Numbered from the stretch's first letter, positions 21,914 to 26,271 are shown. The stretch is DNA of 35,230 nucleotides from a virus (IMGVR_UViG_2872698443_000002); one strand, 5' to 3'. Made by a program: numbers and translations. The notes: generated by a model not told the origin, from the sequence alone.

Positions 21914-22511
21914 TCTGCTGCCACCGGGTTCAACTTCACTGGAGCGCCGACTGGCGCAAACCTGTAGCGGGATTTCTGATTTGCAGGTACCGCTGCGTGA
22001 CTTGTGGAATCCGGCTACCTGTCCGGTCAGCTTCCTGCCTTATCTCGCCTGGGCGTTCTCTGTGGATCGCTGGGACGAGGGCTGGACAGAAAGCGTCAAA
22101 CGCCAGGTAGTGAAGGATGCTTTTTATATTCATCAGCATAAAGGAACCACCAGTGCCGTGCGGCGGGTGGTGGAACCGTTCGGATTCCTGATCCGCATTA
22201 TTGAGTGGTGGCAGACCGGAGAAACACCGGGCACGTTTCGCCTGGATATCGGCGTGCAGGACCAGGGCATCACTGAAGATACCTATCTGGAACTTGAGCG
22301 ACTGATAAGCGATGCCAAACCATGTAGCCGCCACATGATCGGCATGTCCATCAATCTGCAGACCAGCGGCCCGCATTGGGTGGGAGCCGCCAGCTATCTT
22401 GGCGAAGAAATCACGATCTATCCGTATATCAACGAAACGATTATTTCCGGTGGCACCGCGCATGAAGGCGGGGCGGTCCATGTTATTGACACAATGAGAG
22501 TGAATCCATGA
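21906..22511 (+). CDS. I: baseplate/tail protein gpI
   Basis: 201 aa, overlaps the J end and the H start. Confidence 0.85.
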   Translation: MNSLLPPGSTSLERRLAQTCSGISDLQVPLRDLWNPATCPVSFLPYLAWAFSVDRWDEGWTESVKRQVVKDAFYIHQHKGTTSAVRRVVEPFGFLIRIIEWWQTGETPGTFRLDIGVQDQGITEDTYLELERLISDAKPCSRHMIGMSINLQTSGPHWVGAASYLGEEITIYPYINETIISGGTAHEGGAVHVIDTMRVNP

Positions 22512-24031
22512 GCACAAAATTTTATACCCTGCTGACGGATATTGGCGCGGCGAAACTTGCCAGCGCCGCCGCGCTCGGTGTGCCGCTAAAAATTACCCAT
22601 ATGGCGGTCGGCGATGGCGGTGGAGTATTGCCAACGCCGGACGCAAAGCAGACGGCACTGGTAAATGAGAAACGCCGGGCTGCGCTGAATATGCTTTATA
22701 TCGACCCGCAGAACAGCAGCCAGATTATTGCCGAACAGGTGATCCCTGAAAACGAGGGCGGTTGGTGGATACGTGAAGTGGGCTTGTTTGATGAGTCCGG
22801 GGCATTGATTGCCGTGGGCAACTGCCCGGAAAGCTATAAGCCGCAACTGGCTGAAGGTAGCGGGCGCACTCAGACCGTGCGCATGGTGCTGATTACCAGC
22901 AGCACGGACAATATCACCCTGAAAATCGACCCTGCTGTAGTGCTGGCAACCCGCAAGTATGTGGATGACAAGGCACTGGAGCTGAAGGTGTACGCGGATG
23001 ATCAGATGGCAAAACATCTTGCCGCACCGGACCCGCATTCACAGTACGCGCCAAAAGCCAGCCCGACATTTACCGGAACCCCCAAAGCGCCAACGCCAGC
23101 GGCGGGGAATAATACCACGCAGGTTGCGACCACTGCGTTTGTACAGGCGGCACTGACGGCCCTTATTAATGGTGCGCCAGCCACGCTGGACACGCTGAAA
23201 GAAATAGCCGCAGCCATTAACAATGATCCGAATTTCAGTACCACCATTAACAATGCGCTGGCACTAAAAGCACCGTTGTCGAGTCCGGCACTCACCGGAA
23301 CGCCAACAGCCCCCACGGCGGCGCAGTCGGTCAACAATACACAGATTGCCACTACGGCTTTTGTGAAATCGGCGATTGCAGGAATGGTGGGTTCTGCACC
23401 TGCTGCACTGGATACACTGAACGAACTGGCGGCGGCACTGGGGAATGATCCGAACTTTGCCACGACAATGCTTAATGCGCTGGCAGGTAAACAACCGCTG
23501 GACAATACGCTTACCAATTTGAGTGGAAAGGATGTGGCTGGTCTTCTCGCATACCTTGGTTTGGGAGAAGGTGCTCCAGCTATTGGCGTTCCGTTCTTCT
23601 GGCCGTCCGCCGCAATGCCAGATACCGTAATCGAAAGCTGGTCCGGCATGGTGTTTTTGAAGTTCAACGGCGCGAAATTCTCTGCCACTGATTACCCTGT
23701 GCTGGCGAAAGTGTTTCCTTCGCTGGTATTACCTGAAGCCCGCGGTGATTTCATTCGTATCTGGGATGATGGTCGTGGTGTAGATAGTGGACGTGGATTA
23801 CTTAGTACGCAGTCTGACCTGATGAAACAATTTACTTTGCAATACTACGGTCCTTCTGCTGGTACTGGAACAAGAATGGTTTTCGCCCTCCAGAGTAATG
23901 CGAACGGCATATATACGAGTGGTATTAGTCAGAATGATGGTAGTGGCACCGCTGCGGCTTTTAATGTACCAGGCGGCACCGAAACACGCCCACGTAACAT
24001 TGCATTCAACTTTTTAGTAAGGGCTAAATAA
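22508..24031 (+). CDS. H: tail fibre protein gpH (constant N-terminal part plus currently expressed variable C-terminal cassette)
   Basis: 507 aa. Contains two tandem ~57-aa repeats (...SPTFTGTPKAPT...NDPNF / ...SPALTGTPTAPT...NDPNF). A gix-like crossover site lies inside the gene at 23544..23569. Confidence 0.85.
   Translation: MSTKFYTLLTDIGAAKLASAAALGVPLKITHMAVGDGGGVLPTPDAKQTALVNEKRRAALNMLYIDPQNSSQIIAEQVIPENEGGWWIREVGLFDESGALIAVGNCPESYKPQLAEGSGRTQTVRMVLITSSTDNITLKIDPAVVLATRKYVDDKALELKVYADDQMAKHLAAPDPHSQYAPKASPTFTGTPKAPTPAAGNNTTQVATTAFVQAALTALINGAPATLDTLKEIAAAINNDPNFSTTINNALALKAPLSSPALTGTPTAPTAAQSVNNTQIATTAFVKSAIAGMVGSAPAALDTLNELAAALGNDPNFATTMLNALAGKQPLDNTLTNLSGKDVAGLLAYLGLGEGAPAIGVPFFWPSAAMPDTVIESWSGMVFLKFNGAKFSATDYPVLAKVFPSLVLPEARGDFIRIWDDGRGVDSGRGLLSTQSDLMKQFTLQYYGPSAGTGTRMVFALQSNANGIYTSGISQNDGSGTAAAFNVPGGTETRPRNIAFNFLVRAK
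23544..23569. repeat. invertase crossover site, left (TTCTCGCATACCTTGGTTTGGGAGAA), inside H
   Basis: 26-bp imperfect dyad. It matches the reverse complement of the 25624..25649 site at 18 of 26 positions, including the central ACnTTGGTTT, and the codon phase is identical in both. Confidence 0.6.
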
Positions 24032-24624
24032 TGAAACCTGTTTTTGATAAAAATGGGCTGGCTACAGTGCCGGGTGATATGCGTTGTTTTTATTATGATG
24101 CAGTAACGTCTGAATATACTGGCTGGTCTGATGAATATATTAATACTGGTGTAAGTATGCCCGCCTGTTCCACTGGTATTGACCCGGGCGAATACATTCC
24201 GGGGAAAGTGGCAGTATTTACGGGTAAGGGATGGAGCCATGAAGAAGACCACCGCAATGAGACTGCTTACTCAATCGAAAATGGCGCAGCTGTTACAGTG
24301 GATTATATCGGTGCCATCAAAGACGCTTATGTCACGCTTTCACCGTTAACGCCATACGATAAATGGGATGGTGAGAAATGGGTGACAGATACTGAGGCAC
24401 AGCATAGTGCCTCAGTAGACGCGGCAGAAGCACAGCGCCAGTCGCTGATTGATGCTGCAATGGCTTCCATCAGTCTGATTCAACTGAAATTGCAGGCCGG
24501 GCGGAAGCTGACGCAGGCAGAAACAACCCGACTTAACGCCGTGCTGGATTACATTGACGCGGTGACGGCAACAGATACCAGCACCGCGCCGGATATCATC
24601 TGGCCTGAACAGCCGGAGGCGTAG
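24031..24624 (+). CDS. G: tail fibre assembly chaperone gpG (Tfa), expressed orientation
   Basis: 197 aa directly after H. Its C-terminus (...DYIDAVTATDTSTAPDIIWPEQPEA) resembles that of the convergent tfa copy. Confidence 0.8.
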   Translation: MKPVFDKNGLATVPGDMRCFYYDAVTSEYTGWSDEYINTGVSMPACSTGIDPGEYIPGKVAVFTGKGWSHEEDHRNETAYSIENGAAVTVDYIGAIKDAYVTLSPLTPYDKWDGEKWVTDTEAQHSASVDAAEAQRQSLIDAAMASISLIQLKLQAGRKLTQAETTRLNAVLDYIDAVTATDTSTAPDIIWPEQPEA

Positions 24625-25030
24625 GCCATTCAATATCTGGAGCACTGGAAATATCAACCATTTCCAGTGCGTCCAGATAATCAAACCAGGCGTTCAAAAG
24701 TGCTTCTTCATCTGGCTTGATGCGTTTGAGCGCCAGTCTTGTCCGTAGCATCTCTGTTTCCGATTTCACTTCTGATATCAGAAATACTTTTTTGACTTCC
24801 GCCTGATGCACCAATTCCTCATGGGTAGGCAGAGTGACATTCACCCAGGCAGGTCGACCTTTGACACTACCGAGTTCTTTTCCTTCCGGAGCCGGTTTCA
24901 TCCAGTATTTATCACGCTCTGAATCCGTCAGTTTAACGATATCGTCCGGCCATGTTCCGGCGGCGATATAGCCGTCTTTCATATCCAGAGGATAAAACGC
25001 CAACGTTGTGGCTGAGAAGCACATATCCAT
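24596..25030 (-). CDS. alternative tail fibre assembly chaperone (tfa'), silent orientation
   Basis: 144 aa, convergent with G with 3' ends overlapping; C-terminus (...DYLDALEMVDISSAPDIEWPTPP) is related to G. Confidence 0.7.
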   Translation of the reverse strand: MDMCFSATTLAFYPLDMKDGYIAAGTWPDDIVKLTDSERDKYWMKPAPEGKELGSVKGRPAWVNVTLPTHEELVHQAEVKKVFLISEVKSETEMLRTRLALKRIKPDEEALLNAWFDYLDALEMVDISSAPDIEWPTPPAVQAR

Positions 25031-25032
25031 AA

Positions 25033-25677
25033 TTAAAATCCTATCGCTAGCCAGGTGGTGGCGTTATTATCGGGAAGGAGCACTCTGTCTGATGTGTTGC
25101 TTAACACGCAAATCTGTGTGGCATTAAATCCGACATTCGTTATAGCATTAGCTGTCCACACTGATGTCGTTTGTCCGCCGCCCGGCGAAGACTCGCCGAC
25201 AAACAGTGGTGGTCTTGTGAAAGCCACCGGGAATTTTACGTAGACATCTGTTGGTGTAATCTCTGATAGCCCCCACTGTATAATCATGCCGGACGGTAAC
25301 TTCTGATATCCATTAGTTGACGGTGAACTACCAAAATCAGCAGGTAGCCCGCGCACCAAATCGGCATCAAGCCCTGACCCGGAACCATCAACCTGAAGCA
25401 GTTTTGTCAGTATTGCCTGCGCCGTTACCTGTTCTTCAAGAGCAAGACTTCCTCCTTTGTTTTGCAGATATACGTATTTTGCGGCACCGTCGACTTTAAA
25501 AGCGATAGCAAATTGTTTCTTCTGTTCATCATATGCCAGCCAAAGACTATCCTCTGGCCTGCCAGACTCAAACACGAAAGTCGAGAATCTGTTATCTGTC
25601 TTATCTCTCTTCAGGTTCAGTAATTCCGGTAAACCAACGTTTATGAAAATGCAGAGATAACGGCTAACTGGCATCAT
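25033..25677 (-). CDS. alternative tail-fibre variable C-terminal cassette (promoterless, silent orientation)
   Basis: Reading frame open through the crossover site. Sequence after the site (...IFINVGLPELLNLKRDK...) parallels H at its crossover (...LLAYLGLGEGAP...). The functional part is about 25033..25636; residues upstream of the site are read-through only. Confidence 0.65.
   Translation of the reverse strand: MMPVSRYLCIFINVGLPELLNLKRDKTDNRFSTFVFESGRPEDSLWLAYDEQKKQFAIAFKVDGAAKYVYLQNKGGSLALEEQVTAQAILTKLLQVDGSGSGLDADLVRGLPADFGSSPSTNGYQKLPSGMIIQWGLSEITPTDVYVKFPVAFTRPPLFVGESSPGGGQTTSVWTANAITNVGFNATQICVLSNTSDRVLLPDNNATTWLAIGF
25624..25649. repeat. invertase crossover site, right (TTCCGGTAAACCAACGTTTATGAAAA), gix/hix-like
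   Basis: Closely resembles Gin/Hin-family recombination sites (compare gix TTCCTGTAAACCGAGGTTTTGGATAA); inverted relative to the site in H; about 55 bp upstream of the invertase gene. Confidence 0.65.
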
Positions 25678-25704: not shown

Positions 25705-26271
25705 ATGCTTATTGGCTATGTACGCGTGTCAACAAATGACCAGAACACCGATTTGCAACGTAATGCACTGAACTGAGCGGGATGTGAGCGGATTTTTGAG
25801 GACAAAATCAGTGGCACTAAGTCCGACAGACCGGGACTGAAAAAACTGCTCAGGACATTATCGGCAGGTGACACTCTGGTTGTCTGGAAGCTGGACAGGT
25901 TGGGGCGCAGTATGCGGCATCTCGTTACGCTGATAGAAGAGCTGCGCCAGCGTGGCGTGAATTTCCGAAGCCTGACTGACAGTATTGATACCAGTACCCC
26001 AATGGGCCGTTTCTTTTTTCATGTCATGGGGGCCCTGGCTGAAATGGAGCGCGAACTGATAGTTGAACGTACCAGGGCGGGGCTGGCTGCAGCTCGCGCC
26101 AAAGGCAGAGTAGGTGGACGCCGTCCTAAGTTGATCACCGAACAGTGGGCACAGATTGGACGTTTACTCGAGGCCGGAGAATCAAGACAGCGTATTGCAC
26201 TGATTTTTGATGTAGGTGTTTCCACAATTTATAGAAAATTTCCGGCAAATAAGAGCAATGAATCCCCCTGA
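25705..26271 (+). pseudogene. Gin/Pin/Hin-family serine DNA invertase with in-frame TGA at codon 24
   Basis: MLIGYVRVSTNDQNTDLQRNALN-stop (TGA 25774..25776), then the same frame continues AGCERIFEDKISG...LVVWKLDRLGRS...FRSLTDSIDT...GRFFFHVMGALAEMERELIVERT... to 26271. This is a full-length invertase apart from the single stop, which falls where Gin/Hin have a Cys/Ser codon. Confidence 0.8.

Follow-up and report, generated by a model that had tools for sequence, protein, structure and literature searches.

A tandem 74-residue module in the shaft of a P2-type prophage tail fibre, the counterpart of the b1/b2 repeat of phage P1

The tail-fibre gene H of this P2-like Escherichia coli prophage raises two linked questions, namely, whether the shaft of its product contains a genuine tandem repeat and whether such a repeat changes the length of the fibre by recombination, as an earlier note on the same DNA had proposed. 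In the window, that is, the whole analysed stretch of 35,230 nucleotides, H follows the baseplate genes J and I and precedes a fibre-assembly gene, as is the case for genes of the P2 gpH type, and the same gene order around H, judged from Pfam labels, is found in the relatives L003 and L004. The H product has the same sequence (100% identity) as P0002, an E. coli protein annotated as 'phage tail protein', and matches many PHROG tail-fibre families. The gene and its immediate surroundings comprise the following features:

22508-24031, plus strand: tail-fibre gene H of the P2 gpH type, 507 aa (open reading frame, PF12571 and PHROG tail-fibre families)
22508-22957, plus strand: N-terminal baseplate-attachment domain, PF12571 (Phage_tail_fib), aa 1-150 aligned with profile positions 1-150 of 150, E = 2.5e-65
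23570-24028, plus strand: putative variable receptor-binding tip of H, aa 355-507, match to the T4 gp37 tip (2XGF), E = 2.4e-7
24031-24624, plus strand: tail-fibre assembly chaperone in the current orientation, phrog_105 'tail fiber assembly', E = 2.3e-83

The resemblance to the receptor-binding tip of T4 gp37 spans the last ~150 residues of the H product. Judged by these matches, H encodes a P2-type tail fibre, and the repeat sits where the earlier note had placed it, in the predicted shaft between the PF12571 domain and the 2XGF-like tip. An antisense open reading frame of 228 aa (23002-23688, minus strand) runs across the repeat and most likely arises from the richness of the coding strand in Ala, Thr and Gly codons.

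The repeat consists of two units, delineated by alignment and with a unit profile, that follow each other head to tail with no spacer, each of them 74 aa or 222 nt long:

23060-23281, plus strand: repeat unit A, aa 185-258, 74 aa: SPTFTGTPKAPTPAAGNNTTQVATTAFVQAALTALINGAPATLDTLKEIAAAINNDPNFSTTINNALALKAPLS
23282-23503, plus strand: repeat unit B, aa 259-332, 74 aa: SPALTGTPTAPTAAQSVNNTQIATTAFVKSAIAGMVGSAPAALDTLNELAAALGNDPNFATTMLNALAGKQPLD

The earlier note had described a tandem repeat of ~57 aa and quoted two peptide blocks of 59 aa each (aa 185-243 and aa 259-317). The similarity between A and B, however, runs on through 15 residues past each of these blocks (STTINNALALKAPLS and ATTMLNALAGKQPLD), and the true unit is therefore 74 aa. 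The tandem arrangement stands but its period is longer, and the span of 23057-23500 given for it has the right length (2 x 222 nt) but begins one codon too far upstream. Aligned in register without gaps, A and B are identical in 45 of the 74 aa (61%) and 138 of the 222 nt (62%). Local alignment of the two halves yielded a score of 222 (BLOSUM62), compared with 36.0±6.5 and a maximum of 67 in 500 composition-preserving shuffles (z = 28); the repeat is therefore far beyond chance, and the two consecutive related blocks of the earlier note hold up on formal alignment. A six-frame scan of the 35-kb window with the unit profile detected A and B as the sole copies. Tandem Repeats Finder reported no DNA-level repeat between 22400 and 24200 because the copies are too diverged in DNA; the repeat exists at the protein level.

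A search of 1.84 billion cluster representatives with the unit profile produced 40,309 matches at E<=1e-3, 14,001 at E<=1e-10 and 1,620 at E<=1e-30. Among the best 150 of the 40,309 matches, arrays extend up to 9-11 full units (P0121 has nine), the commonest spacing of successive units is exactly 74 aa (53 pairs), and the N-terminal sub-module (~30-35 residues) also occurs alone in arrays, in ~20 copies. Neighbouring units in arrays elsewhere show a median aa identity of 70%, with at least 80% in 7 of the 57 pairs. In the consensus of 246 units (SP.lTGtPtAPTaa.gtntTQiATTAFV.aaiaaLv.saP.aLDTLnELAaAlGnDpnFatT.tnaLa.KAPl), the first sub-module is extended and Pro/Thr-rich and ends in the conserved core TQ(I/V)ATTAFV, and the second is helical and is built around AP..LDTL.E(I/L)AAA...DPNF. 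Lambda Stf and hundreds of actinophage minor tail proteins have the second sub-module by itself, and this sub-module also matches Bxb1 gp4 (PDB 9D93) with E = 1.4e-8. Because the halves occur apart, the unit is composed of two sub-modules that meet at the conserved core. No Pfam family covers the 74-aa unit, even in the nine-copy P0121 or in the P1 S protein, where Pfam recognises the 'a' repeats alone, as PF03406; the precomputed 'PF14749 Acyl-CoA_ox_N' labels on three-unit homologues turned out to be spurious sub-threshold matches to the helical part.

Structure prediction gave a partial picture of the unit. An AlphaFold2 monomer model of full-length H, built from a shallow alignment of 10 sequences, had a mean pLDDT of 36, and a second model, of the 148-aa pair and based on 121 fragment homologues, had a pLDDT of 70; the word-indexed profile search behind it returned short fragments only and served as an alignment, not for copy counts. 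The pair model is usable for the secondary structure of unit A alone, unit B being of low confidence: in unit A, residues 1-24 are non-regular and are followed by helices at residues 25-38, 40-54 and 59-68, with pLDDT of 77-94. Foldseek comparison of the pair model with the PDB produced no match at E<=0.001, and the weak matches below this level were to PhiTE baseplate chains and to the cyanophage A4 fibre 9K09. By analogy with other fibres, the unit would form a serial segment of a three-chain shaft, and each unit would add an increment to its length.

The closest known counterpart of the pair is found in phage P1. A tblastn search of phage genomes with the 148-aa pair matched gene S of P1 over the full length, with 81.8% identity (E = 5e-44), and the P1 record (AF234172) labels the matched stretch 'repeated element b1' and 'repeated element b2', each of which is 222 bp long in the cited locus PP1RP (M81956). 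In the GenBank record, b1 and b2 are followed by cixR, the crossover site for Cin, and by the invertible C segment. The helix half of unit A is closest to b1 of P1 S (76% nt identity), and unit B has its nearest counterparts in b2 of P1 S, in the sole unit of P2 gpH and, for Fels-2 H, in the helix half of the unit. The A/B pair is thus the known b1/b2 repeat of P1 gene S, an element that is common in phage fibres, and since this element is already annotated, the repeat is not novel. The H gene as a whole combines a P2-type N-terminus, a P1-type b1-b2 pair and an inversion-site block. Work by Haggard-Ljungquist and colleagues and by Sandmeier and colleagues in the early 1990s reportedly described shared motifs and horizontal exchange among the fibres of P1, P2, Mu, lambda and T4.

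The region downstream of the repeat contains the elements of a candidate inversion switch:

23544-23569, plus strand: 26-bp cix/gix/hix-like crossover site, TTCTCGCATACC TT GGTTTGGGAGAA, inside H, 40 nt after unit B
24596-25030, minus strand: second chaperone open reading frame, paired with the alternative tip
25033-25677, minus strand: alternative fibre tip open reading frame, on the opposite strand to H
25624-25649, minus strand: degenerate partner crossover site, reverse complement TTTTCATAAACG TT GGTTTACCGGAA, at the start of the alternative tip open reading frame
25705-26271, plus strand: serine DNA invertase gene, Cin/Pin-like, with an in-frame TGA at codon 24 (nt 25774-25776)

The pattern TTCTCN4ACCN2GGTN4GAGAA has a single match in the window, at 23544-23569, with 0 expected in shuffles, and the equivalent site in P1 is cixR, located after b2. 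The megablast homology of many phages and prophages to H ends at H nt ~1064, and 18 of the 80 IMG/VR contigs with related loci (L005-L084) end 1053-1101 nt after the start of H, at the crossover site. This site marks the border between the constant and the variable region of the fibre; because homology breaks there, the repeat is assigned to the constant shaft, with the variable tip starting shortly after the repeat. The contig ends at this position suggest assembler behaviour at a segment present in both orientations and, by extension, a switch that is active in many hosts. The partner site matches the left site at 17 of the 26 positions, and a simulated inversion between 23544-23569 and 25624-25649 produced an in-frame H of 550 aa with a different tip. 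The segment at ~23557-25637 therefore has the structurally complete look of an invertible segment of the Cin/Gin/Pin kind. The invertase translation reads MLIGYVRVSTNDQNTDLQRNALN*AGCERIFEDK..., with weak serine-recombinase matches in its distal part; because of the in-frame TGA at codon 24, the switch is probably locked as it now stands, barring the action of another invertase in trans.

Several properties of the pair bear on the age of the duplication. The identity between A and B is 66%, 81% and 39% at codon positions 1, 2 and 3, respectively, the same codon is used at 19 of the 45 residues that are identical between the two units, and the longest exact DNA run common to both is 12 nt. Because the protein sequence has been kept while synonymous sites are near saturation, the duplication is old, and the A-then-B order is common to P1. 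Most probably, the A-B pair was inherited or acquired as a block together with the adjoining inversion site and was not duplicated in H.

The earlier note had suggested a comparison with homologues that differ in repeat number, and such homologues exist: P2 gpH and Fels-2 H have one unit each and some close relatives have three. Within the 120 closest clusters at 90% identity, two units are present in 115, three in 4 and a larger duplication in 1; three of the four three-unit proteins are 581 aa long (507 + 74) and one is 578 aa long. The larger duplication is found in P0001, a protein of 768 aa from Salmonella Typhi annotated as 'Gifsy-2 prophage tail fiber protein', in which a 264-aa internal direct duplication extends from inside unit A to inside the tip and is joined where both partners read NNTT; this single record may reflect either a genuine duplication by microhomology or an error of assembly. 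Two of the three-unit proteins are informative with respect to how units are gained. P0022 (locus L004) has the arrangement A-A'-B, in which A and A' are identical at 220 of the 222 nt and the junction lies in the first 6 nt of the unit, so that A' appears to be a recent duplication on very short homology. P0038 (locus L003) has the arrangement A-(B/A)-B, with a switch near unit nt 75-84: the first 84 nt of the middle unit are 97.6% identical to unit B of H and the other 138 nt (85-222) share 91% identity with unit A, as would be expected if an out-of-register crossover had taken place at the conserved core. A P1-like donor of this middle unit was ruled out, with 70-75% identity to P1 b1 as against 91-98% to the H-type A and B halves. 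We also noticed that L003 and L004 carry no invertase and no opposite-strand tip and chaperone, the sheath gene directly following H and one chaperone; therefore, gain or loss of the inversion module is independent of the repeat.

In other genera, the relatives with one unit, and Fels-2 as well, have a chimera of the reverse kind that begins as A-type and ends as B-type, as far as can be read from DNA painting, which is noisy for single-unit genes. In a sample of 65 complete fibre open reading frames with a homologous N-terminus, restricted to one genome per species, 46 have no full unit, 15 have one, 3 have two and 1, a Phytobacter fibre, has four; a truncated first unit is present in 9 of the 15 one-unit genes. 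The shortened form recurs in several enterobacterial H homologues (L088, L092, L094, L103, L105, L106 and L141), whose first unit, of ~46 aa, lacks the greater part of the helical sub-module and precedes a complete B-type unit; deletions of sub-modules are thus a further source of variation in shaft length. The order of change among the one-, two- and three-unit forms could run in either direction, and the A/B chimera of the single-unit genes might be the ancestral state and not the result of a contraction. Variation in unit number is thus supported across species, from 0 to 4 units, but such changes are rare among close relatives of H: among 80 IMG/VR relatives with an N-terminal domain at least 98% identical to that of H, three units are present in 2, and none has a complete open reading frame with one unit.

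These data can be confronted with the view that A and B constitute an active recombination hot spot, such that the prophage population continually yields fibres of different length. The three-unit alleles among close relatives, the near-identity of the new copy in P0022, which implies a recent event, and the chimeric unit of P0038 would all fit this view. Efficient RecA-dependent recombination in E. coli, however, needs an exact match of ~20-30 bp, and A and B, with 62% nt identity and no exact run over 12 nt, are therefore poor substrates. The rarity of three-unit forms and the lack of complete one-unit genes among the 80 relatives point in the same direction, as does a survey of 5,426 complete E. 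coli genomes, 684 of which carry the A|B junction and none the B/A crossover junction; a contiguous A|A junction was seen in none of the 12 rows listed out of 445 matching records, and the A|A places reported by megablast as '100% covered' resolved into two pieces ~230-250 bp apart, the start and the end of one unit, and were not contiguous. H itself has matches in ~1,765 E. coli genomes. The complete H genes of the IMG/VR relatives encode 353 to 647 aa and nearly all contain two units, the range in length arising because the tip is exchanged, and the hot spot of H diversity begins just past the repeat, at the inversion site; the homology breakpoints between alleles lie at that site and further downstream, outside the repeat. 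The two-unit form is stable in populations, and we consider the hot-spot view highly improbable. The earlier proposal holds in a long-term sense: the chimeric units in homologues are footprints of recombination over evolutionary time, but not of present-day instability at this locus.

At the opposite extreme, the similarity of A and B might be dismissed as a compositional artefact of two Ala/Thr/Pro-rich, low-complexity stretches, given that A, T, P and N are abundant in the region and that Tandem Repeats Finder saw nothing in the DNA. The probability of this is negligible and we reject it: 45 residues are identical in an alignment that runs for 74 positions in register and without a gap (z = 28), the disparity between codon position 2 (81%) and position 3 (39%) is the mark of purifying selection on a shared protein sequence, and the unit recurs at the exact 74-aa spacing in thousands of proteins. 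A subtler possibility is that A and B are two specialised modules kept distinct by selection and not interchangeable spacers, for example, because they set the register of the trimer chains, dock an accessory protein or chaperone, or suppress deleterious recombination. There is something to be said for it, namely, the two old types of helix half, A-like and B-like, in the same order in P1 S and H, the B-type helix half beside the connector with which single-unit fibres end, and the usual divergence of adjacent array units (median 70% identity). Nevertheless, the A-A'-B and A-(B/A)-B genes and the four- and nine-unit arrays are all intact open reading frames, which argues that units are largely additive, and divergence is also expected from the neutral ageing of an old duplication, so that we give this possibility little chance. 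A bolder formulation, in which the 74-residue unit is a very widespread, formally undescribed shaft domain and the divergence and order of A and B are selected and do not merely reflect age, seems to us conceivable but doubtful; if it were true, the benefit would be that three chains are held in register or that recombination is suppressed.

The explanation that we favour, and consider very likely, is that the repeat represents two old copies of a 74-residue shaft module of the P1 b1/b2 type. Under this explanation, A and B would be structural modules in the shaft of a homotrimeric tail fibre, situated in the constant part of H between the baseplate-binding N-terminus and the exchangeable tip. 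Their role would be mechanical, to space the tip from the baseplate, with a fixed increment of the shaft per unit. Because the sequence of the unit is conserved among otherwise unrelated fibres, it might also provide homology patches for exchange between fibre genes. The number of units would shift over evolutionary time through rare out-of-register recombination, typically at the core between the sub-modules, and occasionally through microhomology-mediated duplication, the H copies themselves being too diverged for frequent recombination.

The repeat is thus real but ordinary, and its value is practical, for annotation and engineering, leaving the current view of tail-fibre evolution unchanged. 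The 74-aa unit serves as a marker of the constant shaft in many P1-, P2- and lambda-type fibres, and with ~40,000 clusters matched and no Pfam model, it could be defined as a family. The core TQIATTAFV and the downstream inversion site are natural junctions for the construction of chimeric fibres, and the rare one-, three- and four-unit alleles represent a ready series for relating shaft length to adsorption.

Finally, the repeat of H can be placed among known fibre systems, from the most distant to the closest. Lambda Stf, the actinophage minor tail proteins and Bxb1 gp4 share with H the helical LDTLxELAxALGxDPNF motif, which corresponds to the second sub-module of the unit, at ~50-78% identity over ~50 residues, but they lack both the N-terminal SP.(F/L)TG.P.APT...TQIATTAFV sub-module and the 74-aa period. 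The PF03406 repeat (Phage_fiber_2, 'Phage tail fibre repeat', ~42 aa) is, like the unit, a short shaft repeat of enterobacterial phage fibres, and in P1 S it directly precedes b1, with a profile match at aa 215-254; it is nevertheless a different sequence family, and the PF03406 profile matched neither H nor the isolated 148-aa pair at E<=10. The H proteins of P2 and Fels-2 resemble H in that a homologous N-terminal domain is followed by the 74-aa unit, which in Fels-2 starts at residue 185, exactly as in H. In contrast to H, P2 gpH has one B-type unit (aa 256-328) located after two PF03406-type repeats, and its annotated record shows no inversion segment after H and G; a paper on P2 pseudotyping does not deal with the 74-aa unit (PMC9594776). 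Fels-2 H likewise has one unit (aa 185-258), an A-start/B-end chimera. P1 S differs from H in its unrelated N-terminal part (aa 1-256, as opposed to the PF12571 domain of H), in the 'a' repeats (PF03406) that precede b1 and are missing from H, in the DNA of the units, which is ~70-76% identical to that of the H units, and in the distance from the repeat to the inversion site, ~150 nt compared with 40 nt in H. Despite these differences, P1 S shares with H the 222-bp period, the two tandem copies with 82% aa identity over 148 aa, the order of the helix halves, A-like first and B-like second, and the location of the pair in the constant part of the fibre (Sc in P1), shortly upstream of a cix-type site that opens the variable tip.
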